DNA from: Gammaproteobacteria bacterium
GTDB taxonomy: Bacteria; Pseudomonadota; Gammaproteobacteria; GCA-002705445; GCA-002716945
Reading direction: 5' to 3'
Length of the DNA: 64,000 nt
Assembly: GCA_038101125.1 (NCBI GenBank)
Contig: JAYNVZ010000002.1
Coordinates: 2,353 to 66,352 of the forward strand
The notes beneath the pieces are model-generated. The model had not been told where the DNA came from and ran no database searches. It saw only the letters and a program-made list of their open reading frames with translations. Every line of letters begins with the position of its first letter. The first letter of the stretch is position 1. Both the position numbers and the translations under genes were made by a program. Shown here one piece after another: positions 225 to 41,134 of this stretch.

Positions 225-962
225 TTATTTGTTTGATTCTAGACTCTTTGCCCAATCTGAAATATGTCTCTGGTCTCTTGCTGTATCAGTTTGATTTCTT
301 GTGGGACTAAAAAATAATCCTGGTGCATGTAACAATTTACTATAGGGAAATATTATCATTAAAAGTAAAACAAGTGAAAGATGTAAGAGCAAAATAAAAT
401 CATTAGGTAACTCTGTCCAACTAAAATACATCAGTCCAATAAAAAACTGTTTTACTGCATATATATCAGTATGAAACCACTTCATCATTAAACCAGATAT
501 AGCTATTGAAATAATTAGTATTAACATTAAATAATCTGATGGATTTGATATATATCTAACTCTGTCAACGAATATCCTTCTTGCCAAAAGTCCAAACAAA
601 CCAAAAACCATAACATAGCCTGCATAATGTCCAGCAGCTTGAACGATTTCCCATGAAACCCAAGTCCATACTGGATCTGTAAAATACTTCAAGTGTCTGA
701 AGGCTGCGAGTAAAAGTGCAAAATGAAATAACCAGCCAAATAACCATGTCCATTTAGTTGCCGAGAATAAACTCTCAAAGAACACAACTTCTCTAAAAAT
801 TCTAACCGCTACCAATGGTTTTGTTTTAGGCGCAGGAGGTGTTGGGATTTTTAAAGGGGCAGGTATTGTTGAATATTCGTATATCCTATAAGCAATACCT
901 ATAAAGAGTATTAAGGTAGCCACATAGAATGATATTCCATAGAATATAGTCACAAATGACAT
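225..962 (-). CDS. dsrM: DsrM, NarI-like dihaem cytochrome b membrane subunit of the DsrMK(JOP) complex
   Basis: 245 aa polytopic membrane protein with conserved His in TM helices. It sits directly downstream of dsrC and precedes the dsrK fragment. Confidence 0.65.
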   Translation of the reverse strand: MSFVTIFYGISFYVATLILFIGIAYRIYEYSTIPAPLKIPTPPAPKTKPLVAVRIFREVVFFESLFSATKWTWLFGWLFHFALLLAAFRHLKYFTDPVWTWVSWEIVQAAGHYAGYVMVFGLFGLLARRIFVDRVRYISNPSDYLMLILIISIAISGLMMKWFHTDIYAVKQFFIGLMYFSWTELPNDFILLLHLSLVLLLMIIFPYSKLLHAPGLFFSPTRNQTDTARDQRHISDWAKSLESNK

Positions 963-995
963 ACCTTATCTCTCCTTATATTTTTGGTATTATAA

Positions 996-1328
996 TTAAA
1001 CGCAACCAGTAGGCTTTGGTAATCCAGCAAATTTACATGCTTGTTTACCTGGACCATAAGGAAACAACTCATATAAATATTTACTGTTACCTTTATCTTT
1101 GCCAAGTTTCTTACCTACAGCTTTTGTTAATACTCTAACAGCTGGCGCTATTTGATATTCTTCGTAATATTCTCTTAAGAAATTAATAATTTCCCAGTGA
1201 TCATCACCAAGGTCAATGCCATCTTCTTTAGCCATGGCAGTAGCTAGGTCTTTCTCCCACTCACCAAGATTGGCTAAATAGCCTTCTTCGTCGGTTTCAA
1301 AAGATTTTCCATTTACTTCTATCGGCAT
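996..1328 (-). CDS. dsrC: DsrC (TusE/DsrC/DsvC family) with both conserved C-terminal cysteines
   Basis: 110 aa. The C-terminus CKFAGLPKPTGCV carries CysB and the penultimate CysA typical of bona fide DsrC. It lies in the dsr operon. Confidence 0.85.
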   Translation of the reverse strand: MPIEVNGKSFETDEEGYLANLGEWEKDLATAMAKEDGIDLGDDHWEIINFLREYYEEYQIAPAVRVLTKAVGKKLGKDKGNSKYLYELFPYGPGKQACKFAGLPKPTGCV

Positions 1329-1341
1329 AATTTACTCCTAT

Positions 1342-1644
1342 TTATAACCAGTTTTGAACTTTATCATTCTCAACTGTTAATTTAACAAATTCTTTATAAT
1401 CTATAATTTCTATATTAGAGATTAGGGAACTTTTATCAAGTCCTCTTGCTTTTAAATCTGGCCCAAGTACATAAAGTTTAATAGTTTTTTGAGCATTTGT
1501 AATTGAACTCTCAAAGGATGTATTCTGTAAAGCTCCATAAACACCATCTTCAATCAAAAGAATTGATGAATTATCTTCAGCTAATCTTAAACATGTCTCA
1601 AGACTATTTTTTTCAAATGGTGATTTATTTACAGTATGTAACAT
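1342..1644 (-). CDS. dsrH: DsrH (TusB-like sulfur relay subunit)
   Basis: 100 aa, position after dsrF, size and DsrH/TusB-like sequence. It overlaps dsrF by 1 nt. Confidence 0.65.
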   Translation of the reverse strand: MLHTVNKSPFEKNSLETCLRLAEDNSSILLIEDGVYGALQNTSFESSITNAQKTIKLYVLGPDLKARGLDKSSLISNIEIIDYKEFVKLTVENDKVQNWL

Positions 1645-2027
1645 TAGAAATTTAAAACAACCTCGCTATCGGACATTAATTTTTTCATCTCAGAACTATC
1701 AATAACTTTGACATCTACAGATAAATCATCTTCTGTGAGTCCGCGTGAATGAAGTGATTCTTTCTCAACATAGAGTTTTTCTACATCATACATTTCCAAT
1801 GCAGAATAAATTTTAGAAAAGTTCTTAGTATAGATTTCGGATGTATCTTGATTCTTTTTTAGCTGAAAAACACCATCATCTATGAAGGCCAAACTTACAT
1901 CTTGATCAAATGCAGCTCCTATCAAAACTACTTCCAGCGCTTCATGCGCATATACTGTTCCATGTGGTGCTCTACGATTTACATAGAGGAATTTTTTAAC
2001 AACACCCGTTTCTAGTTCATCTTCCAT
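1644..2027 (-). CDS. dsrF: DsrF (TusC-like sulfur relay subunit)
   Basis: 127 aa DsrE/DsrF-fold protein between dsrE and dsrH. Confidence 0.7.
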   Translation of the reverse strand: MEDELETGVVKKFLYVNRRAPHGTVYAHEALEVVLIGAAFDQDVSLAFIDDGVFQLKKNQDTSEIYTKNFSKIYSALEMYDVEKLYVEKESLHSRGLTEDDLSVDVKVIDSSEMKKLMSDSEVVLNF

Positions 2028-2420
2028 TTAATCACCAAAAGTTATCATCCTATCTGCTTGTATTCCAGCCTCTATTAGTTGACCTAATCCAGATATCCTG
2101 AATTTTTCAGCTATATTATCAGCATCTTTATTATTTCTTTTCATTTCATCAGGATCTACCATGCCACGTCTTTGAGCTGCAGCAACGCATAAAACTAAGT
2201 CGATATTATTTTCTTTTGCTAATTCAGACCATCTATTTGGGATATGTCTATCATCCTGAGGAGGTGTCGCTAATCTTGTTCCATTATTTACACCATCATG
2301 ATAGAAGAAAACTCTAAAGATTGTGTGTCCTTCTTCAATAGCAGCTTTAGCGAATAAATAAGCACTGTCAGAAGCTTGATGCTGATATGGTCCTTCATTG
2401 ACTAGTATACCAAAATTCAT
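2028..2420 (-). CDS. dsrE: DsrE (TusD-like sulfur relay subunit, conserved active Cys in LCVAAAQRRG)
   Basis: 130 aa DsrE/TusD family protein with a conserved Cys-containing motif. It lies immediately downstream of dsrB. Confidence 0.75.
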   Translation of the reverse strand: MNFGILVNEGPYQHQASDSAYLFAKAAIEEGHTIFRVFFYHDGVNNGTRLATPPQDDRHIPNRWSELAKENNIDLVLCVAAAQRRGMVDPDEMKRNNKDADNIAEKFRISGLGQLIEAGIQADRMITFGD

Positions 2421-2432
2421 AATAACCTGCTG

Positions 2433-3512
2433 TTAAAATCTAATATAAGCAGATGAATTCAATGTTTTTCTTCCACCACGCCAGTTATCGATATGATGTT
2501 TAGTAAATGGCAACTCAGTCAATTCAAAGAATCTTGGCCATCCTATTCTTTCAATCCAATCATTTATACGTTCCCAATCCTTAGCATCTTCTTTGTAAAC
2601 TTTTAAGATCCTTTTTACTATAGCAGTCGCTTCTGGCCATCTAGGTGGATTATTAGGTATACCTGCAGCTACTAATTTTTGGAAAGTTGGTTTACTTCTT
2701 GCATTAGAATGGTTGCCACCTACCCAGATAGCTAATTTACTATGCTCTGGATCATTTATTTGCATTGGTGGACACGGAGGAAAACAAGCTCCACAGCAAA
2801 TACATTTCTTTTCATCTACTTCTAGTGAGGCCTTTCCATTAACCATTGCAGGTCTAATCGCTGCAACAGGACATCTAGCTACAACAGATGGTCTCTCACA
2901 TACGTTAGAAACTAGGTCATGATTAATTTTAGGTGGTTTGGTATGTTGTATATTAATTGCAATATCACCTTGACCACCACAGTTTATTTGACAACATGAT
3001 GTAGTCATGTGAACCCTGTTTGGCATCTCATTATTTTTAAATTCATCTATTAACTCATCCATCATTGCCTTTACAACACCAGATGCATCTGTTCCTGGGA
3101 TATCACAATGCAACCATCCTTGAGTATGAGATATCATTGCGACACTATTTTTAGTTCCACCAACAATGAAGCCTTCTTTTTCTAGTGCTTCAATTAATGG
3201 CTCAACTTTTTCTGAGTCTTTGACCATGTATTCAATGTTGCTTCTTATTGTGAATCTTACAAACCCATCTGCATATTTATCACCAATATCACAAAGTGTT
3301 CTTAGGGTAAATACATCTAAAATTCTCTGAGTTCCTGCTCTAATTGTCCAGATTTCATCACCACTCTCTGCCTTATGTCTTAATACTCCAGGCTTAGGGT
3401 GATCATGCCATTTCCATTGTCCAAAATTTTTTCGCATTGTTGGATGCATGTACTGAAATCCATCAGGAGCTCCAGTCTCTATAGGTGATCTTTGTTTTTT
3501 TTGTTCTGTCAT
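2433..3512 (-). CDS. dsrB: Dissimilatory sulfite reductase beta subunit
   Basis: 359 aa. It has sirohaem/FeS-binding Cys clusters and a ferredoxin-like insert (CPVAAIRP...CICCGAC). It follows dsrA. Confidence 0.9.
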   Translation of the reverse strand: MTEQKKQRSPIETGAPDGFQYMHPTMRKNFGQWKWHDHPKPGVLRHKAESGDEIWTIRAGTQRILDVFTLRTLCDIGDKYADGFVRFTIRSNIEYMVKDSEKVEPLIEALEKEGFIVGGTKNSVAMISHTQGWLHCDIPGTDASGVVKAMMDELIDEFKNNEMPNRVHMTTSCCQINCGGQGDIAINIQHTKPPKINHDLVSNVCERPSVVARCPVAAIRPAMVNGKASLEVDEKKCICCGACFPPCPPMQINDPEHSKLAIWVGGNHSNARSKPTFQKLVAAGIPNNPPRWPEATAIVKRILKVYKEDAKDWERINDWIERIGWPRFFELTELPFTKHHIDNWRGGRKTLNSSAYIRF

Positions 3513-3527
3513 AATTACTCTTCTCTT

Positions 3528-4781
3528 TTAAGCAGTGTCTTTCTTAGCGTCTGCACGTTCATACCATTTAACTGCTTCATCATCCCAATCATCTGTTCTT
3601 ACATAACTTGACTCTCTTGGGTTTGCAATCATATTTGGCTCAACTTCTACACCAATCCCTTCTAAGAAATTTACTAAACCAATTCTTTCGATCATCTCAC
3701 CGCATCTTTCATGTTCCAGCGCATTATCTGCCCAGAAATCAATCGTTTCCTCTGCAATTTCAACTAGCCTATCCCAGTCTTCTTCAGATTCTAGTTTCAT
3801 GAATGGAACTATTACCGTCCCCATTAAGTCGCCAATCTTAAGTGTTCTTTTGCCGCCAATAAGAATTGTTGCCCCTTTATCATCACCTGGATGTAAAGCT
3901 TTTGGCACCACGTTAAGACAATGCATACATTTTACACAATTCTGGTTATCGATTGTGACAGAATCATCGTCATTGAGAGATATTGCATTAGTTGGACAAC
4001 GTGTAACTATATTATCAATTACATATTTTCTACCCTTTAATCCAACATATGCTTTGAACTCTTCTTGATCTACTTTTATGTCATCTCTCCAAGTTCCTAT
4101 GACAGACATATCTGCTCTTTCTATAGAGTTCATGCAATCATTAGCACATCCTGATACTTTAAATTTGAATTTATATGGCAATGCAGGTCTATGCATATCG
4201 TCAATAAAATTATTTACTAATAATCTATGAGCTTTGTGTTCATTAACATTAGACATTTCGCATCTTCCAGCACCTACGCATGACATTGCTGTTCTCACGC
4301 ATGGACCAGCACCACCTAAATCCCACCCTTTTTCATTGATATCGTCGAAAAAGTGTTGCGTAGAATCGGTAGTTGACCCAATAAACATAATGTTGCCGGT
4401 TTGACCATGGAAAGTGACTAAACCAGAGCCATGTTTTTCCCATGAATCTGCTAGGTCTCGTAGTGATTGTGTAGTATAAAAATTACCTGCTGGAGGCTGA
4501 ACTCTTAAAGTATGGAATTCTTTTGACTTTGGAAATGCATCTCCAACTTCAGAAAATCTTGGAATGATACCGCCACCATATCCATATACACTTACTGTTC
4601 CACCTTTCCAGTATCCTTTTCTTGTTTCGTATGAATGTTCTAATTGACCTAATAAATCATTGGTCATTTCATTAATTCTTGTCTCTGGATGCGTATCTCT
4701 TAATCTTTTGATTCCACTAATGAAACTAGGCCATGGCCCGTTTTCTAGCTCATCTAACATAGGTGTATCGTGCTTTTTCAA
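3528..4781 (-). CDS. dsrA: Dissimilatory sulfite reductase alpha subunit
   Basis: 417 aa. It has DsrA-type Cys motifs (CVGAGRCE, ferredoxin domain CPTNAI...CVKCMHC). It is the first gene of the dsr operon, and dsrEFH downstream indicate the sulfur-oxidising type. Confidence 0.9.
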   Translation of the reverse strand: MKKHDTPMLDELENGPWPSFISGIKRLRDTHPETRINEMTNDLLGQLEHSYETRKGYWKGGTVSVYGYGGGIIPRFSEVGDAFPKSKEFHTLRVQPPAGNFYTTQSLRDLADSWEKHGSGLVTFHGQTGNIMFIGSTTDSTQHFFDDINEKGWDLGGAGPCVRTAMSCVGAGRCEMSNVNEHKAHRLLVNNFIDDMHRPALPYKFKFKVSGCANDCMNSIERADMSVIGTWRDDIKVDQEEFKAYVGLKGRKYVIDNIVTRCPTNAISLNDDDSVTIDNQNCVKCMHCLNVVPKALHPGDDKGATILIGGKRTLKIGDLMGTVIVPFMKLESEEDWDRLVEIAEETIDFWADNALEHERCGEMIERIGLVNFLEGIGVEVEPNMIANPRESSYVRTDDWDDEAVKWYERADAKKDTA

Positions 4782-4907
4782 TTATAACTCCCCAACTCTG
4801 ATATATATCTTTATTATATTATCATTATTTTCTAATATAAGTCTATGGCTAAACAATATAGCATTGATAATAAATGCTTTACAAGTAATAAATATGAATA
4901 AATTCTG

Positions 4908-5756
4908 ATGAATATACTCTTAAATACTAAAGAAGATTATAAACGCTGGAAAGATAAAAAACTAGAGTCATTTACTAGAAATATCGATCATCTAACAGTC
5001 CATATTTCTAATCCGAACAGTGTGAGCAAGCCTGAAAAAAATAAGGTAATTAGCCTTTTGAGAAGTAATAACCTAGCTTTTTTCAATATTGATAATATTA
5101 GTTATAAAGATAAATCATCCATCAAAAGATTTGCCTTTCAAATTGGACTAGGTGATTATGAATTAGATTCAAGATCGGATGATGATGGCCTCACAGAGAT
5201 AAAAGAACATAAGCATAACGATAAAATATCTGAGTATATTCCATACACTGCTAAAGAGCTAAATTGGCACACAGATGGCTACTATAATACTAAAGATAAT
5301 TCCATTTTATCATGGTTATTATTCTGTAAGACACAATCCGAAAAAGGCGGAGTTAACAAATATTTAGATCATGAAATCTCATATATTTTGTTTAACGATA
5401 TTAGTAATAAAATAAAAGATCTAATGTTAGAAAACACTTGCTGTATCCCAGAAAATCGAATGACTAAAAGGAAGGGGGTTCTTAATCCAGTTTATATGTT
5501 TAATGATGAGAAATTGCATATGAAGTTTAGTATGAGAAAAAAAAATATTATTTGGAATGATGTTAGTCTGAAAGCGATCAATATCCTAAAAAGTATTATA
5601 GAAGATTCATCTGAATATCATATAACAAAAAAATTTGCTGAAGGAGAAGGTGTAATAACAAATAATGTTATTCATAAGCGTACAGCATTTACAAATTCAG
5701 AAAATAAGAATAGGCTCTTATATAGATTAAGATCCAAAAGAAGAGTAATTAAGTGA
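4908..5756 (+). CDS. TauD/TfdA-family Fe(II)/2-oxoglutarate dioxygenase
   Basis: It has the WHTDG (HxD) motif. A distal GEGVITNNVIHKRT segment aligns with TauD GDLVMWDNRCLLHRAT (second His and Arg). The gene is divergent from dsrA. Confidence 0.6.
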   Translation: MNILLNTKEDYKRWKDKKLESFTRNIDHLTVHISNPNSVSKPEKNKVISLLRSNNLAFFNIDNISYKDKSSIKRFAFQIGLGDYELDSRSDDDGLTEIKEHKHNDKISEYIPYTAKELNWHTDGYYNTKDNSILSWLLFCKTQSEKGGVNKYLDHEISYILFNDISNKIKDLMLENTCCIPENRMTKRKGVLNPVYMFNDEKLHMKFSMRKKNIIWNDVSLKAINILKSIIEDSSEYHITKKFAEGEGVITNNVIHKRTAFTNSENKNRLLYRLRSKRRVIK

Positions 5757-5947
5757 TGTTGTACCTAAGCAGTTTATTGATAGAAGAAAAACAAATCGAA
5801 ACATTTGATGAATTACTAGAAGTCATTAAACAACGGGCAAAAGATGGGGAGATCTTTTTTAGGATTGATCTCAAACCTCCATTTCCTGATACGCCAGAAA
5901 ACTGGGAAGATAAAGTAGAATCAGCCTTTAACAGTTACATAGAATAA
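5753..5947 (+). CDS. hypothetical small acidic protein (64 aa), translationally coupled to the upstream gene (ATGA overlap)
   Basis: ORF with 4-nt overlap to the TauD-like gene. No recognisable domain. Confidence 0.3.
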   Translation: MMLYLSSLLIEEKQIETFDELLEVIKQRAKDGEIFFRIDLKPPFPDTPENWEDKVESAFNSYIE

Positions 5948-5949
5948 TA

Positions 5950-6624
5950 ATGTGGGAAGAAGAAGAACAAGTTCAGCTCAATGATACATCTAAAATGATA
6001 GATGTAACTTTTAGAATAGATTGCAAAACATTACCCTATGATCATGCTTATGCTTTATCTAATGAAATAACAAAAAATATGCCCTGGCTCTTAGAGAATA
6101 ATTTAACTGGCATACATACGCTTCATGGACCTGAGTCTGGTAATGGCTGGGTAAGATCAGAAAAAGAAGAAATCTTTTTATCCAAAAGAACACGTTTAGT
6201 TCTTAGAATTCCAAGGATTGATATAGAAAAAGCTAAAGAGCTCGAGAATGTTTCTGTGAACGTATTGGGCAATACCATTAAAATTGGTAAATCTAACACT
6301 AAAGCTTTCCTTGTTGTCAGAGACTTAATTAGCAGGTTTGTGTTATGTGACGAGAATGAAACTGAAGAGGACTTTCTTTTAAGTGTAAAAAAAGAATTAT
6401 TTTCTCATGGAGTCATGATAAAAAAAGCAATATGTGGCAAAGAAAAATCTTTCACAATAAATGGTAAAAATAGATTTACTCGCAGCCTGATGATTGCCGA
6501 TCTAAGTAAAGAAAACTCTGTTTTACTCCAAGATACTGGTGTAGGCAGTGGCAGAATATTTGGATGTGGTATTTTTCTACCTCATAAATCAATTGATGCA
6601 GTTTCTGGTTTCAAAGAAGACTAG
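5950..6624 (+). CDS. Cas6-like RAMP-superfamily protein (Cmx6-like), orphan
   Basis: N-terminus MIDVTFRIDCKTLPYDHAYALSNEI resembles the Cas6/Cmx6 N-terminal signature. A C-proximal glycine-rich loop GVGSGRIFGCG matches the GhGxxxxxGhG RAMP motif. No CRISPR repeats are seen in the window. Confidence 0.4.
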   Translation: MWEEEEQVQLNDTSKMIDVTFRIDCKTLPYDHAYALSNEITKNMPWLLENNLTGIHTLHGPESGNGWVRSEKEEIFLSKRTRLVLRIPRIDIEKAKELENVSVNVLGNTIKIGKSNTKAFLVVRDLISRFVLCDENETEEDFLLSVKKELFSHGVMIKKAICGKEKSFTINGKNRFTRSLMIADLSKENSVLLQDTGVGSGRIFGCGIFLPHKSIDAVSGFKED

Positions 6625-6708
6625 ATGATTCTTAAAATCCATATAGACATATTCTGATTAGTATATTAGAATTTTCACATATACAAAATAGGTTAGATGG
6701 AGTTTTAA

Positions 6709-7047
6709 ATGAAAGTTGAACTAAATGGTGTGCAAATTGAGACAACTGAGACTGGATTTCTAGTTAATCTTGAAGATTGGAATGAAGACATTGCTAAGGT
6801 AATTGCAACACAAGAGGAAATTGAACTAACTGACAGGCATTGGGATGTCATTAATTATTTAAGAGATGAATTTATCAATAATAAAGAGAATCAACCTAAT
6901 ACAAGAAATATGGTCAAAGATATCGGTAAAATTTGGGGTGAGAAAATTGATACTAAAACATTATTTGATTTATTCCCTGGCAATCCAAGCAAACAAGCTG
7001 GTAGAATAGGTGGTTTACCAGAAAGTAGGAGAAAAGGTGGATACTAA
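6709..7047 (+). CDS. DsrC/TusE-family paralog lacking both conserved C-terminal cysteines
   Basis: 112 aa, alignable along its length to the dsrC at 996-1328 (NLEDWNEDIAKVIA, WDVINYLRDEF, LFDLFPGNPSKQAG). It ends ...GLPESRRKGGY and has no Cys anywhere. Confidence 0.65.
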   Translation: MKVELNGVQIETTETGFLVNLEDWNEDIAKVIATQEEIELTDRHWDVINYLRDEFINNKENQPNTRNMVKDIGKIWGEKIDTKTLFDLFPGNPSKQAGRIGGLPESRRKGGY

Positions 7048-7271
7048 TGAGTGATATGAAAAAACTTGAAGAAGAGAGAAAAACTATAATTACTAAAATG
7101 CTTAAAATTCAGAAGGAATTTATGGAGCTAGAAAGAAAGGATGGTATTACAGAAAAAGATATACACCTCAATCCGACTGGAATAGTAAAAGAATACAAAG
7201 AAGAGCATGAAAAACTAGCAAATAGACTAGTTGATATAGCTCATGAACTTAAGGGGTCAATTAGAACATAA
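7047..7271 (+). CDS. hypothetical coiled-coil small protein (74 aa)
   Basis: ORF overlapping the upstream stop, with a charged heptad-like sequence. Confidence 0.3.
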   Translation: MSDMKKLEEERKTIITKMLKIQKEFMELERKDGITEKDIHLNPTGIVKEYKEEHEKLANRLVDIAHELKGSIRT

Positions 7272-7465
7272 TGAATAATGATTATTTTCAAAAAGTAAGC
7301 GAATTAGAAGAAATGAATGTTTCCGATGATTATATAATTGGTTGGCAAGAAGGCTATCAGCACGCTCCAAAACTAGAAGAACAAAGATTGACAGATGCGT
7401 ATGAAGCTGGATATGAAGACGGAGAAAATAACAATATAGAAAAGGCGGAAAAATTTAAGAAGTAA
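7271..7465 (+). CDS. hypothetical small acidic protein (64 aa)
   Basis: ORF coupled to the upstream gene by a 1-nt stop/start overlap (TAATG). Confidence 0.25.
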   Translation: MNNDYFQKVSELEEMNVSDDYIIGWQEGYQHAPKLEEQRLTDAYEAGYEDGENNNIEKAEKFKK

Positions 7466-8026
7466 CTACTTGGTTAGCGAGTTATACACATCTATAATTT
7501 TCTTACATATTTCCACCGCATCAATATCTACAATCTGATCCATAACCCATTTATTAGTTTGACTTGTTCCCATGGCATCCTGAATTTTTTTCGCAAGGTG
7601 ACGATAAATAGAATAGTTTGAACCACCGTTTGTAAATTCATAGTTTGAGTACTCTTCTGATCTTAAATTCAAAGTATTAATATAACCTTTTTTGTAATCT
7701 CCAATGCCAAATAAGTCCTCGCAATTTTCCTGCATTATTCTAGAAGACTGTTTGCCTAATATGTTCATAACTGCCATTCTATAATCATCTTTTTTTTTGT
7801 CTAAAAATAGAAGCCTATCTACAATATGGACTTGGAAAGACATAAACTCAACAATGACAGCTATACGTTGATGATCAGATGAATAATCAAAATCTTCTCC
7901 ATGAAGATTGCGTGCTTTATCTAAAGATAACTTCCAAGAAATATAAGATAAAGCGCTTGCAATATCTTCGCTAGTTTTCTGACGCTTTACCGTCTTTGAC
8001 CAATTACTCTTAATTCTAATTGCCAT
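7466..8026 (-). CDS. hypothetical protein (186 aa)
   Basis: Long ORF on the opposite strand inside the accessory block. No recognisable motif. Confidence 0.35.
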   Translation of the reverse strand: MAIRIKSNWSKTVKRQKTSEDIASALSYISWKLSLDKARNLHGEDFDYSSDHQRIAVIVEFMSFQVHIVDRLLFLDKKKDDYRMAVMNILGKQSSRIMQENCEDLFGIGDYKKGYINTLNLRSEEYSNYEFTNGGSNYSIYRHLAKKIQDAMGTSQTNKWVMDQIVDIDAVEICKKIIDVYNSLTK

Positions 8027-8108
8027 ATTAATTATCTTCTATATATTTAGGTTGTATTTTATACTATACACTCAACTATTAAGAATATAAATCTAGAGGT
8101 AATATCAA

Positions 8109-8702
8109 TTGGGTATTGAGATCAACAAAAGATTAATAGAAGTCAAACCTGGGAGTTTCATTTATGAATTCCAAAATAGCTTATCCACTGATGAATGCAA
8201 GAATATTATAAATAGATTTGAAGAGTCTAAAGATGACCATTACCAAGGAAGAGTAGGTCAAAATTTTACTAAAAATGCAGATGTAAAGAAGTCCACAGAT
8301 ATGGTAATAAGTGGCAAAGACAAATGGAAAGATGTGGATGAATTATTTTTTACTAGTTTATCTAAAGCTCTGAGTACTGTTAAAAAAGAATTTGATTTTT
8401 TTTCTGGGCCTTTTAAAGATATTGGTTATGCTGTACAACGAACTAAACCAGGTGAGTACTTTCATTGGCATATTGATAGCGGGAGCCATCAATTTAGCGA
8501 TAGACAATTAGTAGCAATTTGGTATCTGAATGATGTTGACGGGCCAGGCGGAGAAACTGAGTTCTTAAATCAAGACGTTAAAGTAAAACCTGAAGCTGGG
8601 AAACTTATATTGTTTCCACCATTTTGGACTCATGAGCATCGTGGTGTTACACTTCAAAAAGGTATTAAATATATAGCAACTACATGGATAGTATTTAAAT
8701 AA
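8109..8702 (+). CDS. 2OG-Fe(II) oxygenase superfamily protein (prolyl-4-hydroxylase-like), TTG start
   Basis: HWHIDSG (HxD) plus distal THEHRG His fit a double-stranded beta-helix 2-His-1-carboxylate site. Confidence 0.55.
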   Translation: MGIEINKRLIEVKPGSFIYEFQNSLSTDECKNIINRFEESKDDHYQGRVGQNFTKNADVKKSTDMVISGKDKWKDVDELFFTSLSKALSTVKKEFDFFSGPFKDIGYAVQRTKPGEYFHWHIDSGSHQFSDRQLVAIWYLNDVDGPGGETEFLNQDVKVKPEAGKLILFPPFWTHEHRGVTLQKGIKYIATTWIVFK

Positions 8703-9820
8703 TGACGTCTAATAAAGATTTATCTAACCAAGAACTTATGAAATCTGTGATTCAGAGAATAGCTACTGGACCGGAGCTAAGTAAGAATATTTCAAGAGAA
8801 GAAGCTAAACGATCAATGTCATCAATTTTAGATGGTGACATAAGTGATGTACGCTCAGCAATTTTTTTGATTGCCCTTAGAATGAAAAGAGAAACTACAG
8901 ACGAAAATTTAGGCGTTCATGATGCCATGATAGATTCTGTTAAAACTCTTGATGTACAGGCTGAAAATTTAGTTAATATAGCAGACCCATATGATGGCTT
9001 TACTAGAAATATCCCATCATCAGCATTCATATTACCTGTATTAGCAGAATTAGGTATACCAGCCATTTCTCAAGGTGTAGAAACTGTTGGACCAAAATTT
9101 GGATGCACACATCATGCAATTTTTAAACTTTTAGGATTGGACGTAAATGCATCCCATATAAATGTTGCTGAAAGGATTAACAACAAAGATATTGGATGGG
9201 GGTATATGGATCAAAAAATTTTCTCTCCTAAATTAAATAATCTAATGTCTCTAAGAACAGAGATAATAAAAAGGCCTGTCGTCACAACCATAGAAGTTCT
9301 TGCTAACCCATTAATATCTAAAAAAAATCATTTTGTTACAGGATATGTTCATAAACCTTATCCTCCAATATATTTAAACTTGGCTAGGAATGCTAAATTT
9401 AATACAGCTATCGTCATTCGTGGAACAGAAGGTGGAGTAATACCCTCTTTGAGACAAAAGTCTAACGCTCATTTTTACAATGATATTCAAGAAGAAGATC
9501 AAATATTAGAAATTGACCCTGAGGTAGATTTAAATATAAATCAAAGCGTTAGAGCAGTTAATATACCTGAGTCAATTAAGAAAAAAAGTACTCATGATAA
9601 AATTGAAACTAAGGTAAATCCGATGGATCTTGCTAAAGAATCACTAAAGCTTGGAATGAAGGCTTTATCTGGAGAAGATGGTCCAATGGCTGACTGTATC
9701 ATCTATGGTGCATCGCTCATACTCAACCATGTTACTAGCAGTGGCATTAAATCTTCTTCAAATGAGATTAAGAAGGTACTTAAATCTGGAAGTGCCCTGA
9801 CCCGCTTCAAGCAAATATAG
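8702..9820 (+). CDS. Glycosyltransferase family 3 / TrpD-like protein (divergent, lacks canonical GTGGD)
   Basis: N-terminal helical domain LSKNISREEAKRSMSSILDGDISDVRSAIFLIALRMKRETTDE resembles TrpD. Later blocks are collinear with TrpD (RGTEGGVIPSL ~ HSGGMDEVSL; C-terminal VLKSGSALTRF ~ VLRSGSAYDRV). It has DPYDGFTRN in place of GTGGD. Confidence 0.45.
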   Translation: MTSNKDLSNQELMKSVIQRIATGPELSKNISREEAKRSMSSILDGDISDVRSAIFLIALRMKRETTDENLGVHDAMIDSVKTLDVQAENLVNIADPYDGFTRNIPSSAFILPVLAELGIPAISQGVETVGPKFGCTHHAIFKLLGLDVNASHINVAERINNKDIGWGYMDQKIFSPKLNNLMSLRTEIIKRPVVTTIEVLANPLISKKNHFVTGYVHKPYPPIYLNLARNAKFNTAIVIRGTEGGVIPSLRQKSNAHFYNDIQEEDQILEIDPEVDLNINQSVRAVNIPESIKKKSTHDKIETKVNPMDLAKESLKLGMKALSGEDGPMADCIIYGASLILNHVTSSGIKSSSNEIKKVLKSGSALTRFKQI

Positions 9821-9822
9821 TA

Positions 9823-10122
9823 ATGATTAAACTAATTAATATAAATGATCTTGATAATGATAATATGATGCAAGTAACTATTAATAGCCATAACTATTTA
9901 GTTGCTAAGATTGATGATAATTTTTATGTCACAACAGATATGTGTACTCATGAAGATGCTGAGCTAACAATGGGTTGTTTAAATGGTACCAAAGTCAAAT
10001 GTCCACTTCATGGAAGTTATTTTGATTTGAATACTGGTATTGCACTTAATGAACCTGCGGATGAGCCAATAAAAACTTATAAGACTGTGATACAAGATAA
10101 CCATTTGTATATTGATGAATAA
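9823..10122 (+). CDS. Rieske [2Fe-2S] ferredoxin
   Basis: CTHEDA...CPLHG (CxH-x15-17-CxxH) Rieske motif, 99 aa. Confidence 0.7.
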   Translation: MIKLININDLDNDNMMQVTINSHNYLVAKIDDNFYVTTDMCTHEDAELTMGCLNGTKVKCPLHGSYFDLNTGIALNEPADEPIKTYKTVIQDNHLYIDE

Positions 10123-10134
10123 TTCAGAAAAAAA

Positions 10135-10581
10135 ATGAATATGAATACTATAGAAAAATTTGACTGGGGATGCAGGCACACATGGAACCAATCTGCAGTT
10201 AACACATTATGGTGTTTATTGGGCTGCAGTATTGGAGATATTGGTACAATCTATTATTTCCAATATCACAATATAATGTGGTCAACAGCATCAATTATGT
10301 TACTGGCAATGTTTAATGGAATACTTACAAGCATTATTTTAGAGACAGTTATTTTATTAAAACAAATGAGTATAAAAAATGCATTCAAGACTGCCGTTGG
10401 AATGAGCTTAATATCAATGATCAGCATGGAGTTTGCAATGAATCTGGTTGACTATTTAATGACTGGAGGTGCCAAAATTACCCTAAGCGTTTTACCAATT
10501 ATGTTATTAGCTGGTTTTCTAACACCTTGGCCTTATAATTATTGGAGGTTAAAAAAGTATGGTGTTGGCTGTTGTGGTTAA
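10135..10581 (+). CDS. DUF4396-like small membrane protein
   Basis: 148 aa, 4 TM. The LLGCSIGDIGT motif is reminiscent of DUF4396. It ends in CCG. Confidence 0.4.
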   Translation: MNMNTIEKFDWGCRHTWNQSAVNTLWCLLGCSIGDIGTIYYFQYHNIMWSTASIMLLAMFNGILTSIILETVILLKQMSIKNAFKTAVGMSLISMISMEFAMNLVDYLMTGGAKITLSVLPIMLLAGFLTPWPYNYWRLKKYGVGCCG

Positions 10582-11329: not shown

Positions 11330-13408
11330 TTAAAAATCATAGATTAATGAACCCCAAAAACTTCTTCCTGGCTCATCAACACGATCAGCAGTAGAATCTA
11401 TAGAGTTTGTGCTATTTAAATGAGTCGCATATCTTTTGTCAGTTAAATTGCTCACGCCCATACTGAATCTAATATTCGGTGTTGGCTCAAAACCAGCATA
11501 TATATCATATACTGTGTATCCTCCAGTTCTTCCGCTATCTAAAACTCTTGAATCAAAATTATCCTGAGTATCAGCAAAATTAGCTCTTATACCATAGTTA
11601 ATTGAACCAGTTTGATATTCTAGTGAAATATCCCCTGATAAAGGCATTATCTGGGGTAAAGGTCTATTTTGCGTATCATCATCTCCATGCGTATAATTTA
11701 GATTAAGTGTAGTTTTAACATTAGAAGTAATATTTTTTCTTGCTGTTAACTCATAACCCCAAATTGTAGCATCTACATTCTTATAGACTCTTGCATCATT
11801 AACAGTGTTATCGTATGTTCCATCAGAAACTCTGTAGGTTGTAATATAATCACTAACATCATTGTAATATATGGAACCATTTACATGACTGCCCATAAAC
11901 ATATTTTCGAACCCAAGCTCAAAAGTTGTATGTATCTCAGAATCTAGATTTGGGTTACCAACATGTCTTAGTCTATATTTAGCCCCGCCCATGTTTGTCA
12001 TAGAAGTTTTGGCATTAAACAACTCAGTGGCATCTGGTGTTCTTTCATTTCTACTTAAAGAAATATAAGCGCTAGACATTTGCCCATAGTTCTTCTTGAG
12101 CCTTAAGAAACCACTATAATTATTGAAGTCTCTTTTGCCAGCTGTAACAGTACCAGTGTAGTGAGCTGTGTACAATGAGTTTGCCGGAACCTGTAGCATA
12201 TTACTACCAAAATCATCAGTTGCGCGCGTAGCATTAGTCTCTACTCTGTCAAGTCTAAGGCCATAAGATACTGTTGTTTGATCAGAAACTTTATTGTCAT
12301 TTTCTAAGAAAAATCCAAGTTTAGATATTTCTGCTCCAGGCCACATATACATTAGATTCATTAGCATTCCACTCATGGTCATACTTTGTTCTGCATCTCT
12401 AGTATTATGTTCATAATCTACACCTACCTTCATGCCACTATCCATGGCACCAATTACTCTCCACCCATAAGTATCAGAAGCAGCTGGCGTCTTCATCGAA
12501 TTGGTAGTTCTCATCGTATAGTTATCCATTAAATGATCCATGTCAGAATTATGTAATTCAACTTTCATTGAAGAAAACGGACCGAATGGTGTTACGCGAT
12601 GGTATTTTAAATTATAGATATCAGTATAACTATATGCTATATCCATAGGTAACCCAGCAAACCCAATATTTTCTTGAGAGTTATTAGTATACGTGAATTC
12701 AAGCTTTGAACCATCATCCAATCTTTTGCCTAAGATTGTTGCATAATTACTAGTCTCATATTCTGTGAGCGGCTTTAAGCCTGTCCCTGTCTCATAATTA
12801 CCTGCCTCAGAATAAGATCCATTGATTCTAAAGTAAGCTTGACCTAAACCTAATGTAAAGTCACCTAAAGTAGTTTTACCTTCGGCATTTGAGTCAAATG
12901 TTTGCCCAATTTTTAATTTATAGCCTTTCGATTGAGCTTTATCACCTTTAGATAATCTAGTTTGAGCAAGTGGTTCTGTAATACGCTCATATCTTACTAC
13001 CCCTCCAGGACCACCAGCACCATAGATGACAGATTGAGACCCTTTAATTACAGTAATAGAATCATAGTTCTCAATATTTACATATGTGGACGCAGGATCC
13101 ATTTTAGATGAACAAGCTCCATAAACTATAGCACCATCAATAGATGAGTTAAGTCTTTGATCACTTTGTCCTCTTATCACAGGATCAAGGCCATGACCAC
13201 CACGCCTGATTGTATTAATACCATTGATAGATCTTAAAAGATCTCCACCATCAATAGCATTTTTAGTATTTATATCTTCTATAGCTTGACTGGTTAAGTC
13301 CTGGGTGCTCAAGACTGGCGCAGAAATTTGTATATCTGTTAAATCTTCCGCATGAAGATTGGTCACAAATAATGCCGCTATAAAGAAAACGTATTTATTT
13401 ATATTCAT
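11330..13408 (-). CDS. TonB-dependent outer-membrane receptor
   Basis: 692 aa with a signal peptide, a plug domain with TonB-box-like N-terminus, and a beta-barrel ending in the aromatic C-terminal residue (...LIYDF). Confidence 0.85.
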   Translation of the reverse strand: MNINKYVFFIAALFVTNLHAEDLTDIQISAPVLSTQDLTSQAIEDINTKNAIDGGDLLRSINGINTIRRGGHGLDPVIRGQSDQRLNSSIDGAIVYGACSSKMDPASTYVNIENYDSITVIKGSQSVIYGAGGPGGVVRYERITEPLAQTRLSKGDKAQSKGYKLKIGQTFDSNAEGKTTLGDFTLGLGQAYFRINGSYSEAGNYETGTGLKPLTEYETSNYATILGKRLDDGSKLEFTYTNNSQENIGFAGLPMDIAYSYTDIYNLKYHRVTPFGPFSSMKVELHNSDMDHLMDNYTMRTTNSMKTPAASDTYGWRVIGAMDSGMKVGVDYEHNTRDAEQSMTMSGMLMNLMYMWPGAEISKLGFFLENDNKVSDQTTVSYGLRLDRVETNATRATDDFGSNMLQVPANSLYTAHYTGTVTAGKRDFNNYSGFLRLKKNYGQMSSAYISLSRNERTPDATELFNAKTSMTNMGGAKYRLRHVGNPNLDSEIHTTFELGFENMFMGSHVNGSIYYNDVSDYITTYRVSDGTYDNTVNDARVYKNVDATIWGYELTARKNITSNVKTTLNLNYTHGDDDTQNRPLPQIMPLSGDISLEYQTGSINYGIRANFADTQDNFDSRVLDSGRTGGYTVYDIYAGFEPTPNIRFSMGVSNLTDKRYATHLNSTNSIDSTADRVDEPGRSFWGSLIYDF

Positions 13409-13449
13409 AGTTCCTCCACTATAAATTAGTTATGTTTAATTAAATTATA

Positions 13450-13770
13450 TTAAAGATAACTATGTGGAGGAGATCGAGGTGTTTTAAAAAATGATTTTGT
13501 TGTATGTTTGAATTCTTTTTTATTTTGAACTAACAAGATAGGTTTTCTAACCATAAAAATATTCATATGATCAGCATGAGATGCCATATCAAAATAATAT
13601 GAACAATGATCACAAGGAATAATGTGGTTGTTAGTAGATTGATCAGTATGAAACTTACAAATATCACTCTCGTGATCCGCAATGTCATTCGAAGAAATTA
13701 CAGCGACAGGGAATGCGCCTACGCATATCAATAAAACAATTAAGCTGTAGTATTTACGAATATTTATCAT
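13450..13770 (-). CDS. small secreted Cys/His-rich protein (106 aa), first gene of the receptor-exbB operon
   Basis: Signal peptide followed by HESDICKFHTDQSTNNHIIPCDHCSYYFDMASHADHMN (His/Cys-rich). It sits upstream of the TonB-dependent receptor on the same strand. Confidence 0.4.
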   Translation of the reverse strand: MINIRKYYSLIVLLICVGAFPVAVISSNDIADHESDICKFHTDQSTNNHIIPCDHCSYYFDMASHADHMNIFMVRKPILLVQNKKEFKHTTKSFFKTPRSPPHSYL

Positions 13771-14025
13771 CTTAAACCCCTAAAAGTATAGTACATGATT
13801 TGTAGATATTGTCTAGATAATGAGTGTTCGGATTTGAGTAACGGGGAGATTTATACACATACTCTGCAAATACTCAAATCCTTGTTTGGACATAAGATGC
13901 CCTCTTAAGATCAAGAGGGCTATCTAATGAGAAACCTTATGATGGATATCTAACCTAAGGGAGAGATTAAGAATGTTCTCTTAAGCTAGATATCCATACT
14001 TATTTCACCGGAGAATGATGAAATA

Positions 14026-16272
14026 TTAAAAGTCGAATTTCACTCCTGCCATTACAGACACCGGCTTGTTAGGACGTTTACCGTACTCATGCTCGGAAGC
14101 TACAATGATTTTGTCAAATAAGTTATCTACATTAAAAAATAACTTAGCGTTTTTAATTCCACCTGTATTCATATTAAGGTTCATAGAACTATGTAAATCA
14201 AAAATGAATGCCTTACCTGTTCTGTATGTATTGTTATCATTAGTGAATGTATCATCATGATATTTAGCCCCAAGAGCTATACTGTAATCATTTGTCTCCA
14301 TTCCTAAAGATGTGTACAGTTGGAAATCAGGTACATAAGCAATCGAATTGCCCACATAGCTTGTATTTTGACCTTTGTATTCAGAATCTTGTATCATCCC
14401 AGTTACCATAAATGGGTATCTTGTGCTAGAAGATGTAGACGGCGCGCCTTTCATCTCTGTGCCAGCAAACAAGTTATTTACACGATATTGAAATTCAATA
14501 CCTTTGACCTCTGCCTGCCCTTTGTTAGTAGTATCACCTGAACTACCAGAACATCCAGCTGCCTCAAGACAAGTTTCATTTAGCTGTTCATAATCGTTTA
14601 AGAACGCTATGATTTCCATGAAACCGCCTGCAGTTTCTTTTCTGAATCCAAGCTCATAGTTATCCGATTTTTCTGGTTCAACAGAAAGTCCTTTGCCTGC
14701 ATCTACAGGGCTATGTCCTTGGTTATAAGATGCATACAAAGAAACACCTGGTGCAGCTCTAAAAATTGTAGATGCAGCAATCATTGTTGCTGTTCTATCT
14801 AAATCTTGTTTAGAGTTACCTGGGTTTGCGTTTGTACCATCATTACTTTCCATGTCTTCATATCTAACTCCAAAAGAGTGTGTGAAAGCACCGTCAGTAA
14901 TCGTATCTTTTAAATGATATGATACTGCATCTGTATCTTTAAGTTCAGCGTCTGAGAATCTAGTACTGTCATTACCATGTTCAGATAGTAATGTCATAGT
15001 ACCGTTGCCATCAACAGTATACCTTTGACTAAATCCACTATCAGCTCTTGCTCTATAGTCTTTATGACGTCTGTATCCATATTCTAGATCATGGTTACCC
15101 ATTGTATGGTTGACGACAAATTGAACACCTGTCATTCCATAGTCACGATGACCCATAGATCTTTTTATATACTCGCCATTAACCATAGCTGTGTTATTAG
15201 TTAATATGTTACATGCTCTTAGTTCGATGCCAGAATCACCAGCACAATTTCCAGCCATATCAATAGCCGAATATTTAACAGTAGCATTATTAGTATTAGC
15301 ACCGTCACCATCTGGATCGACCATCATCTCACCACTTTTGCCCCAAAGTCTGCTATATCTAGTTTTATATAACTTAGATGTAATAGTCATATTTGAAGAT
15401 GGTTGCATTGTGTGTGTGAAGATATATCGATGATAATCATTATCCATTTGATCAACAGATGAAACGCCATATCTTTGATATGGGTCAGCTGCAAAGTCAA
15501 CGCCTGTCAATCCAATATATGTTTCATTTGATGTTTCAGAAGTATTAGAACTTGTGATTTCAAATGTTTGATTCCATGCGCTGTTCATTGGTGTGTACCT
15601 AAGTTTGAATAAGTCAGTTTGCTTATCAAAACCTGTATCAGTATTGTTGCCAGTGCCTTTAATATTTTTGTATCCATCAGCTCTATAGTCATGATATTCA
15701 AATACATAACCCACTGATCCAATATTCCCACCGTAGTATGAGTGATTTCTTGAGAAACCATCATCTCCACCGGTTATAGAATAATGACCTTCACTACCAG
15801 ATGTAGGGACCGATCTAGATAAGAAGTTAATTGTACCGGCAGTTGTTCTTGGACCTTGTCCAATAGCTGCTGCACCTTTTAAAACTTCTACACCTTCCAT
15901 ACGACCAACATCAGGGAAGAAATACATACTACCGTTAGAGTAAATAGCTGGGCCTTGTGGCACGCCATCTTCTAAAATGTTTATTTTTGTTGTTCTCAGA
16001 GCACTGGTTCCTCTCATACCTAAGTTAGTTCTTAAGCCGTAACCATCCTCAGTCTGAGAATAAACACCTGGAATTCTTCTGAGAACTCTCTCAGCATCTG
16101 TATAACCCAATGACTTCATCTCATCATCAGAGATGTAGTGGGCTGATCCTGCTTGCTGTGTTTCATCTTGAGATCCGAATACACTAACAGGACTCATTTC
16201 TTCGGCAAATATAGTAGAACTCATTAGTAACAATGAGCTAACCGCAAATACCTGAAAATGTTGTTTTTTCAT
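14026..16272 (-). CDS. TonB-dependent outer-membrane receptor
   Basis: 748 aa with a signal peptide, plug and barrel ending ...GVKFDF. It is divergent from exbD-exbD-tonB. Confidence 0.85.
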   Translation of the reverse strand: MKKQHFQVFAVSSLLLMSSTIFAEEMSPVSVFGSQDETQQAGSAHYISDDEMKSLGYTDAERVLRRIPGVYSQTEDGYGLRTNLGMRGTSALRTTKINILEDGVPQGPAIYSNGSMYFFPDVGRMEGVEVLKGAAAIGQGPRTTAGTINFLSRSVPTSGSEGHYSITGGDDGFSRNHSYYGGNIGSVGYVFEYHDYRADGYKNIKGTGNNTDTGFDKQTDLFKLRYTPMNSAWNQTFEITSSNTSETSNETYIGLTGVDFAADPYQRYGVSSVDQMDNDYHRYIFTHTMQPSSNMTITSKLYKTRYSRLWGKSGEMMVDPDGDGANTNNATVKYSAIDMAGNCAGDSGIELRACNILTNNTAMVNGEYIKRSMGHRDYGMTGVQFVVNHTMGNHDLEYGYRRHKDYRARADSGFSQRYTVDGNGTMTLLSEHGNDSTRFSDAELKDTDAVSYHLKDTITDGAFTHSFGVRYEDMESNDGTNANPGNSKQDLDRTATMIAASTIFRAAPGVSLYASYNQGHSPVDAGKGLSVEPEKSDNYELGFRKETAGGFMEIIAFLNDYEQLNETCLEAAGCSGSSGDTTNKGQAEVKGIEFQYRVNNLFAGTEMKGAPSTSSSTRYPFMVTGMIQDSEYKGQNTSYVGNSIAYVPDFQLYTSLGMETNDYSIALGAKYHDDTFTNDNNTYRTGKAFIFDLHSSMNLNMNTGGIKNAKLFFNVDNLFDKIIVASEHEYGKRPNKPVSVMAGVKFDF

Positions 16273-41031: not shown

Positions 41032-41134
41032 TGTTTTAATGTTGATTAAAAAATTAATGTATTCACCCCTAGTTTTAATTGGCAGATATATATAAATAAG
41101 CAAATATATACTATCATAATATTTAAACACTGTC

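Follow-up and report, generated by a model that had tools for sequence, protein, structure and literature searches.

We analyzed a 64,000-nucleotide (nt) stretch of gammaproteobacterial DNA from contig JAYNVZ010000002.1, hereafter called the window, whose coordinates are used throughout. At positions 4908 to 7465 of its plus strand lie six co-directional genes, divergent from a minus-strand dsr operon (225 to 4781) and encoding, in this order, a TauD-like protein, a small protein that we call sA, a Cas6/Cmx6-family RAMP protein (Cas6L), a DsrC-like protein, a second small protein (sB), and a member of the Alvin_2107 family. Our main subject is Cas6L, which by sequence and predicted fold is a genuine Cas6/Cmx6 RAMP homolog and which, as far as the data reach, has no CRISPR association. 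Open reading frames (ORFs) and their translations were obtained for the whole window, and families were searched for with Pfam and NCBIfam profiles at curated cut-offs. The features of the locus are as follows.

225..4781, minus strand: reverse dissimilatory sulfite reductase operon, seen as ORFs whose Pfam architecture is the same in relatives, with dsrA (3528 to 4781), dsrB (2433 to 3512), dsrE, dsrF, dsrH, dsrC (996 to 1328), and dsrM (225 to 962)
4782..4907, no strand assigned: control region separating dsrA from the divergent TauD-like gene, with a predicted promoter-like block
4908..5756, plus strand: TauD/TfdA-family Fe(II)/2-oxoglutarate dioxygenase, 282 amino acids (aa), PF02668
5756..5947, plus strand: sA, 63 aa, acidic, no family match (64 aa if read from GTG 5753)
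5950..6624, plus strand: Cas6L, 224 aa, Cas6/Cmx6-family RAMP protein, PF09559, TIGR02807, and PADLOC Cas6 models
6644..6672, plus strand: predicted internal sigma-70-like promoter, TAGACA-N17-TAGAAT
6709..7047, plus strand: cysteine-free DsrC/TusE/RspA-family protein, 112 aa, PF04358 and TIGR03342
7047..7271, plus strand: sB, 74 aa, neutral, charged, no family match
7271..7465, plus strand: Alvin_2107-family protein, 64 aa, acidic, NF049856

Cas6L matched PF09559 with an E value of 1e-52 and 179.4 bits (cut-off, 26.7) and TIGR02807 (cas6_cmx6) with 112.2 bits (cut-off, 98.85), a CRISPR-linked member scoring ~206 bits on the latter profile; PADLOC Cas6 models matched it as well. A profile built from 12 close homologs retrieved one solved sequence relative, PDB 8fcj_B (E = 7e-14), which is the Cas6 of the Cascade of a type I-B CRISPR-associated transposon (CAST). 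The AlphaFold2 model of Cas6L, built on 61 homologs, had a mean predicted local distance difference test (pLDDT) score of 87 and a predicted template modeling (pTM) score of 0.84 and is composed of two ferredoxin-like beta-alpha-beta-beta-alpha-beta units. When this model was compared to the PDB with Foldseek, 8fcu_B and 8fcj_B came first (E = 6e-17; template modeling [TM] score, 0.75 to 0.80, with 0.76 to 0.80 for a crRNA-bound Cas6 of the I-B CAST), further matches were Pyrococcus Cas6, Thermus and E. coli Cse3, and archaeal Cas6, and the top 37 matches were all Cas6, Cse3, or Cas6-containing Cascade structures. The first-pass annotation, made from the sequence of the window without database searches, had proposed a Cas6-like protein from the N terminus and a glycine-rich loop. 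Profile and structure comparisons now place the protein firmly in the Cas6/Cmx6 family, and with this overwhelming evidence, we rejected the idea of a chance glycine-rich loop in a non-RAMP protein.

To describe the residues of Cas6L, we refer to a comparison set of 141 subfamily members and 7 CRISPR-linked Cmx6 proteins, the latter consisting of six cas6/cmx6 gene products from cyanobacterial plasmids and 8fcj_B. Five of the six plasmid genes lie beside cas3, with full cas operons at two loci (L042 and L043; L numbers designate individual loci) and arrays at two (L042 and L044). The glycine-rich loop GVGSGRIFGCG spans residues 197 to 207 (nt 6538 to 6570), and its G197, G199, G205, and G207 are retained in at least 133 of the 141 subfamily members and in 6 to 7 of the 7 CRISPR-linked proteins. 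An Asp-His motif, D31-H32 (nt 6040 to 6045), stands at the start of helix 1; H32 is present in 123/141 subfamily members, aligns with a histidine of 6/7 CRISPR-linked Cmx6 proteins, and is a candidate catalytic histidine. The C-terminal beta-hairpin retains basic residues, and an endoribonuclease activity of Cas6L may be inferred from homology.

We then examined the CRISPR context. No CRISPR-like array was detected in the window by a tandem-repeat scan or by an interspaced k-mer scan, no Cmx6-type repeat core (GATGCCNNNNGGCGTTGAKCAC, with 3 mismatches allowed) was found there, and tblastn searches of the window with type I-MYXAN cas3, cas8, cas7, cas5, cas4/1, and cas2 from two cyanobacterial plasmids gave no match. 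The array scan works, since it recovered the arrays beside the true Cmx6 genes of L042 and L044. Positions 12000 to 64000 are overlapped by 38 ORFs with a length of 150 aa or more. The 20 longest of these all matched Pfam families of housekeeping or other ordinary, non-cas proteins, such as CysG, BipA, a DEAD-box helicase, GlnA, NtrBC, GlmS, and GlmU. The statement of the first-pass annotation that no array or cas gene is visible in the 64 kb therefore holds under dedicated searches. Neither was any type I-MYXAN cas gene found across ~125 related loci (~1.2 Mb of flanking DNA), in which a single CRISPR array lies near a Cas6L gene. This array (L050, 10386 to 10991; ~10 copies of the 36-nt repeat GTTTCAAGCAGCGACATTGCTGGGGTACCACTAAAC, spacing ~70) lies 2.6 kb downstream of Cas6L in a Beggiatoaceae-type locus without dsr genes; an invertase-like gene stands between the two, and the repeat is unrelated to Cmx6-type repeats. 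An adjacent CRISPR-cas locus, which had been named as the alternative that would make Cas6L an ordinary Cas6, was thus seen neither in the window nor, this unrelated array aside, in the related loci. A CRISPR locus could be located elsewhere in the host genome, beyond the window. As a check for a mobile or viral origin, we searched the IMG/VR viral contigs and PHROG, which contained no Cas6L relative and no match, respectively.

On the basis of the alignments, Cas6L belongs to a separate, CRISPR-independent subfamily of Cas6/Cmx6. CRISPR-linked Cmx6 proteins, exemplified by the Cas6 of the I-B CAST (8FCJ/8FCU chain B) and those of Synechocystis sp. PCC 6714 pSYLB and Gloeothece PCC 7424, share with the subfamily D31, H32, R86, R129, Q194, G197, G199, G205-C206-G207, and P211, as well as the GxGxxRxxGCGxFxP loop and the two-domain ferredoxin-like fold, yet the identity between the two groups is only 24 to 27%. 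The subfamily alone has an insertion of ~10 residues with N65-G66-W67 (S63-G-N-G-W67 in the window, nt 6136 to 6150), in which G66 is conserved in 140/141 members and W67 in 138/141; this insertion loop (residues 61 to 70) is the sole internal low-confidence part of the AlphaFold2 model. Other near-invariant residues specific to the subfamily are R80 (140/141), E139 (139/141), G163 (139/141), and K213 (137/141), to which R178 (121/141), H212 (117/141), and C162 (102/141) can be added; in Cas6L, several of them are found in the segments C162-G163, T177-R-S, and P211-H-K. A profile of the subfamily retrieved 170 clusters (50% identity) at E values of 1e-30 or below and 1134 at 1e-3 or below.

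Both PGAP and JGI name these proteins "type I-MYXAN CRISPR-associated Cas6/Cmx6." This CRISPR naming is likely a systematic over-annotation, because the TIGR02807 cut-off of 98.85 bits admits Cas6L at 112 bits, compared to ~206 bits for a CRISPR-linked protein. Pipeline labels of this kind create false CRISPR-Cas signals in the genomes of sulfur oxidizers, including uncultured marine Gammaproteobacteria such as the clade of the window, and the subfamily can be told apart by its NGW insertion, its low TIGR02807 score, and its neighbors.

We next looked into the conservation of the neighborhood. In 27/27 species-representative genome loci, all from uncultured Gammaproteobacteria (48 to 98% Cas6L identity), the same arrangement was found, with dsrCHFEBA divergent from the genes for the TauD-like protein, sA, Cas6L, the DsrC-like protein, sB, and the Alvin_2107-family protein. 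More distant carriers (37 to 41% identity, often with high G+C content) have the order TauD-like, sA, a 235-aa protein, Cas6L, and DsrC-like, head-to-head with dsrAB. The ~235-aa protein between sA and Cas6L is well conserved, is absent from the clade of the window, and had no significant family or PDB match; it is encoded in L037 (11237 to 11941, minus strand), which has no DsrC-like gene, and in L039 (8295 to 8999), L041 (8290 to 8997), L048 (Kaarinaea lacus; 6273 to 6980), and L049 (6277 to 6984). A faint CRISPR_Cse2 match (E = 0.036), in 1 of 3 copies of this protein, is probably noise and was discarded. L033 and L034 have the order of the distant carriers minus the 235-aa protein.

We found relatives of Cas6L on at least 575 metagenome contigs and retrieved 80 of these loci, counting, for each neighbor, those with enough flanking sequence. 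The sA gene was directly upstream of Cas6L in 65/65 cases and is the sole invariable partner of Cas6L. A TauD-like neighbor was present in 40/44 loci, a gene for a cysteine-free DsrC was directly downstream of Cas6L in 44/51 (and inverted nearby in three more), a divergent dsrA was seen in 29/31, and the 235-aa protein was encoded in 13/56, while none of the 80 loci contained a type I-MYXAN cas homolog. The exception is formed by Beggiatoaceae-type loci (L040 and L077 of Thioploca, L050, and L091), which retain only sA and Cas6L, next to genes for a CxxCxxCC protein and a transporter. In Thioploca L040, the gap between sA and Cas6L (8633 to 9001) amounts to 368 nt and contains a duplicated 3'-end fragment of sA and short repeats of the TGATCACT type, as if the pair had been split by an insertion.

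The grouping of a TauD-like protein, a small protein, a Cas6-like protein, and a DsrC-like protein beside dsrAB, for which a neighborhood analysis had been proposed from the window alone, is hence conserved from 98% down to ~37% Cas6L identity. The claim that this is not a described system also stood, as we found no publication, in the literature that we searched, that links Cas6/Cmx6 to dsr or to sulfur oxidation or that describes the arrangement, and Cas6L is unmentioned in recent work on Dsr evolution. The protein family itself is on record under its CRISPR name; what is unrecorded is the non-CRISPR context.

Selection on the genes was estimated as pairwise Nei-Gojobori ratios of nonsynonymous to synonymous substitution rates (dN/dS), with ungapped pairs of equal length and dS between 0.1 and 1.5. 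The median dN/dS was 0.02 for dsrA, 0.04 for sA, 0.05 for the DsrC-like gene, 0.11 for sB, 0.16 for the TauD-like gene, 0.17 for the Alvin_2107-family gene, and 0.24 for Cas6L, which is thus under less constraint than any other gene of the string, yet has a ratio well below 1. Within the clade of the window, Cas6L and the TauD-like protein show 48 to 70% identity, compared to 82 to 92% for the DsrC-like protein. Not a single disrupted copy of Cas6L was seen in ~125 loci, and more than 20 of its residues are invariant or near-invariant across the 141 members, down to ~30% identity. Cas6L is clearly under purifying selection, and a pseudogene relic was therefore rejected on the grounds of the dN/dS of 0.24 and the invariant residues.

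We then analyzed the partner proteins. With an isoelectric point (pI) of 4.35 and the invariant motif D-x2-P-x3-D-T-P-x2-W, sA had no match in Pfam, NCBIfam, PADLOC, PHROG, or the PDB. Its ORF had been listed as 64 aa, but the start is most likely ATG 5756, as in relatives, rather than GTG 5753, which leaves 63 aa. The TauD-like protein matched PF02668 with 40.9 bits (cut-off, 27), in agreement with the TauD/TfdA assignment made from its WHTD and distal histidine motifs, and the triad H121-x-D123...H256 is intact; across 34 homologs, these positions and R258, R269, and R273 show a conservation of 95% or more. Since H121-x-D123, H256, and several arginines are retained, the protein is probably an active oxygenase. 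Its best score against NCBIfam equivalogs was 15 bits (cut-off, 400), and it had no sequence relative in the PDB.

The 112-aa DsrC-like protein matched PF04358 with 115.5 bits and TIGR03342 with 100.5 bits, its closest PDB sequence being Allochromatium vinosum DsrC (1yx3), and it contains zero cysteines, as had been read from the window for a protein of the DsrC/TusE fold. Its C terminus is GGLPESRRKGGY, and the C-terminal arm, G102-L-P-x-S-x-R-K-G-G-Y112, is near-invariant and as long as that of DsrC. The arm of a true DsrC is defined by the motif ...C...PTGCV (PMC8477390). Whereas that arm bears cysteines, the DsrC-like protein has GLPxSxRKGGY in its place and both redox cysteines are gone. 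It shares the fold family and the lack of redox cysteines with RspA-type cysteine-free paralogs, from which it differs in the arm and in its fixed position after Cas6L. As judged from these features, the protein is a cysteine-less, RspA-like paralog and not a DsrC.

The last two genes encode small proteins of different kinds. sB, read in the first pass as an acidic or coiled-coil protein, had no match in Pfam, NCBIfam, PADLOC, or PHROG, and homologs of it are encoded after the DsrC-like gene at identities as low as 37% (L041). The final protein, which had been described without an identity, aligned end to end with NF049856 (83.9 bits; cut-off, 60), a family named "globule sulfur oxidation protein" by NCBIfam. 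In A. vinosum, Alvin_2107 adjoins a soxYZ-containing cluster, Alvin_2108-2112 (PMC3368242). Alvin_2107 homologs of other lineages lie beside soxYZ/tusA and not beside Cas6L, and the attachment to the string, which is seen in the clade of the window only, is therefore clade-specific. Of the three tiny acidic proteins initially described, two are indeed acidic (sA and the Alvin_2107-family protein, pI 4.34), but the 74-aa sB is neutral (pI 6.84).

The junctions between the genes are tight except for one. The stop codon of the TauD-like gene overlaps the start of sA in TGATG (5754 to 5758), 2 nt separate the end of sA from the start of Cas6L, and TAATG overlaps join the DsrC-like gene to sB (7045 to 7049) and sB to the Alvin_2107-family gene (7269 to 7273), whereas a gap of 84 nt (6625 to 6708) lies between Cas6L and the DsrC-like gene. 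The TAGACA-N17-TAGAAT element in this gap matches the sigma-70 consensus at 10/12 positions, and the core TAGAC(A/T)TAT...AGTATATTAGAATTTTC is retained in ~25 distinct loci with variable flanks. Because of this conserved internal promoter, the string probably forms two transcription units, one with the TauD-like gene, sA, and Cas6L and the other with the DsrC-like gene, sB, and the Alvin_2107-family gene. The picture of a tightly coupled string with stop/start overlaps was thus correct as to direction and overlaps, but a single operon was rejected.

Upstream, a conserved block, TTTATTATATTATCATTATTTTCTAATAT, emerged when 20 distinct copies of the dsrA-TauD spacer were aligned; on the minus strand, this block reads as a promoter-like site, TAGACT-N16-GATAAT (4845..4818), facing dsrA. 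In distant relatives, the spacer contains a palindrome of ~16 bp, TATCYCTT|AAGRGATA, which was not seen in the clade of the window; it occurs in L041 (a perfect copy, TATCTCTTAAGAGATA, at ~6800 to 6830), L039, L048, L049, and L037, where the spacers measure 420 to 620 nt, and in L033 (157 nt), and its form suggests an operator bound by a dimeric regulator.

On the 3' side of the string lies a second conserved block (7466 to 10581). It begins with a gene on the minus strand (7466 to 8026), convergent with the Alvin_2107-family gene, for a 186-aa protein without a family match, which also travels with Alvin_2107 homologs beside sox genes (L035 and L037). Then come genes for a prolyl-hydroxylase-like 2-oxoglutarate oxygenase (8109 to 8702), a TrpD2/YbiB-like protein (8702 to 9820), a Rieske protein (9823 to 10122), and a DUF4396 protein (10135 to 10581). 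In some relatives, though not in the window, the Rieske gene is followed by a third DsrC-family gene (L001, 12172 to 12504; L011, L013, L016 to L018, and L021). Farther along, the window encodes two TonB-dependent receptors with ExbB (11330 to 16272), the siroheme synthase CysG (17858 to 19252), an NAD(P)-linked Fe-S flavoprotein and, after it, a molybdopterin oxidoreductase (30756 to 34533), and a SulP sulfate permease (39688 to 41205), a content consistent with a sulfur-oxidizing autotroph.

What might Cas6L do beside a reverse-dsr operon? We lean, tentatively, toward a domesticated factor that binds or processes RNA and works on sulfur-oxidation transcripts. The Cas6 fold would have been fixed as an accessory of the reverse-Dsr locus in sulfur-oxidizing Gammaproteobacteria, where Cas6L and sA would bind, and perhaps cleave, a specific structured host RNA and so act post-transcriptionally, as a regulator or a processing factor, on sulfur-oxidation transcripts. 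The DsrC-like, sB, and Alvin_2107-family proteins would belong to a second, separately promoted unit that serves the protein side of the sulfur-oxidation pathway. A role with RNA is the most economical, because the residues conserved in Cas6L are those that recognize or cut RNA in Cas6 enzymes.

Several observations weigh against this preference. H32 is not universal and is replaced by tyrosine in 13/141 members. The subfamily has gained about ten new near-invariant residues, which a changed ligand would explain at least as well as RNA, and it has lost its basic charge, with a median pI of 6.5, compared to 9.3 to 9.6 in CRISPR-linked Cmx6. Our searches for an RNA target were also negative. The spacer between Cas6L and the DsrC-like gene folds no better than shuffled sequences (z = -0.04), and the hairpin that it can form in the window is not conserved; the spacer between dsrA and the TauD-like gene has no stable or conserved RNA fold (z = +0.5); and across loci, the spacers show conserved promoter hexamers but no conserved hairpins. 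No Rfam family was detected in the 64 kb at the gathering threshold, and the window contains no tRNA or tmRNA genes. A scan of synonymous-codon entropy over 14 genes displayed no convincing dip, the lowest value (TauD-like gene, codons 259 to 270; n = 24) falling within codons of A/T-biased amino acids.

Some of these observations lend credit to the main, though rather unlikely, alternative, in which the Cas6 fold has been repurposed to bind a protein or a small ligand instead of RNA. Cas6L and sA, with the 235-aa protein where present, would then be an adaptor or scaffold that serves the TauD-like and/or the DsrC-like protein in cytoplasmic sulfur trafficking or in a control dependent on oxygen or 2-oxoglutarate. 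Such a role would fit the subfamily-wide shift in pI from ~9.4 to ~6.5, the strict coupling of Cas6L to the small acidic sA, the clustering of the subfamily-specific residues in the flexible loop 61 to 70 and at C162-G163, R178, and H212-K213, the lack of any RNA element in the searches of the locus, and the nature of the neighbors, which are proteins of sulfur relay families and oxygenases, with no gene of RNA metabolism. It fits less well with the RNA-contacting elements of Cas6, namely, the glycine-rich loop, the Asp-His motif, and the basic beta-hairpin, all of which stayed conserved, or with the Beggiatoaceae-type loci, where Cas6L and sA persist with no TauD-like, DsrC-like, or dsr gene nearby, and no Cas6-fold protein with a ligand other than nucleic acid is known to us.

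An improbable third possibility is that Cas6L guides a structured RNA, such as a tRNA or an mRNA leader, to the TauD-like protein for oxidative modification. The genes for the TauD-like protein, sA, and Cas6L are translationally coupled and form one unit that precedes the internal promoter. The TauD-like gene is present in 40/44 loci, and its product has an intact catalytic triad but neither a characterized equivalog nor a solved sequence relative. TauD/TfdA enzymes, however, are known for small-molecule or carrier-tethered substrates and not for RNA, no RNA target was found, and some lineages (L040, L050, L077, L085, L091, and L092) have Cas6L and sA without a TauD-like gene.

We consider it very unlikely that Cas6L is an ordinary CRISPR Cas6 acting in trans on an array and a cas operon outside the window. 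Although the protein passes the TIGR02807 equivalog cut-off and carries Cas6/Cmx6 names in PGAP and JGI, and although an array does lie 2.6 kb downstream of Cas6L in L050, its 112 bits compare with ~206 bits for a CRISPR-linked member, what fixes its place is synteny with dsr rather than with cas, and the ~1.2 Mb flanking ~125 loci gave no match to type I-MYXAN cas genes. In L050, moreover, the repeat is unlike Cmx6-type repeats and an invertase-like gene intervenes, and no relative was found in viral contigs. Least probable is that Cas6L is a functionless, decaying leftover of a CRISPR-cas system that has been lost: Cas6L and the TauD-like protein do evolve faster than their neighbors (48 to 70% identity versus 82 to 92% for the DsrC-like protein) and no other gene of the string has as high a dN/dS as Cas6L, but the ratio is still 0.24, every locus has intact reading frames, over 20 residues are (near-)invariant in the 141 members, and gene order is kept across distant lineages.

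Coming back to the domesticated RNA factor that we prefer, a more elaborate and decidedly speculative version of it can be formulated, in which Cas6L and sA, joined elsewhere by the 235-aa helical protein, might form a ribonucleoprotein that links a host RNA to the TauD-like and DsrC-like proteins and controls reverse-Dsr sulfur oxidation, for example, with oxygen or 2-oxoglutarate as the signal. Should this be true, Cas6L would be the first example of a Cas6 taken into core energy metabolism by domestication, and it would supply a regulatory layer that has been missing from the picture of marine sulfur oxidizers, which are abundant worldwide. A host function for Cas6L would, if true, constitute a clear and widespread case of a Cas6 leaving CRISPR immunity. 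The TauD-like protein, sA, Cas6L, and the cysteine-free DsrC make up an accessory module, conserved but unstudied, at the end of reverse-dsr operons where the promoter lies, and they provide concrete candidates for the regulation of stored sulfur oxidation.

Two known systems invite comparison. In A. vinosum, dsr expression is under post-transcriptional control by DsrR and DsrS, a precedent for the RNA role that we prefer. DsrR is a small dsr-encoded accessory, regulatory rather than catalytic (PMC11406059). Like the Cas6L module, DsrR (IscA-like) and DsrS are small dsr accessories with a borrowed fold and a part in how sulfur oxidation is regulated; however, their folds are unrelated to that of Cas6L, their genes are found at the 3' end of the operon, and they have no known link to Cas6L. 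The other system is the dev operon of Myxococcus xanthus, whose DevT, DevR, and DevS are the Cas8, Cas7, and Cas5 proteins of type I-MYXAN and have a role in fruiting-body development. The likeness here is that proteins from the same CRISPR subtype were taken up for a host role other than defense. The dev proteins are effector subunits that still reside in a CRISPR-cas locus, whereas Cas6L is a lone Cas6 in a locus of energy metabolism.

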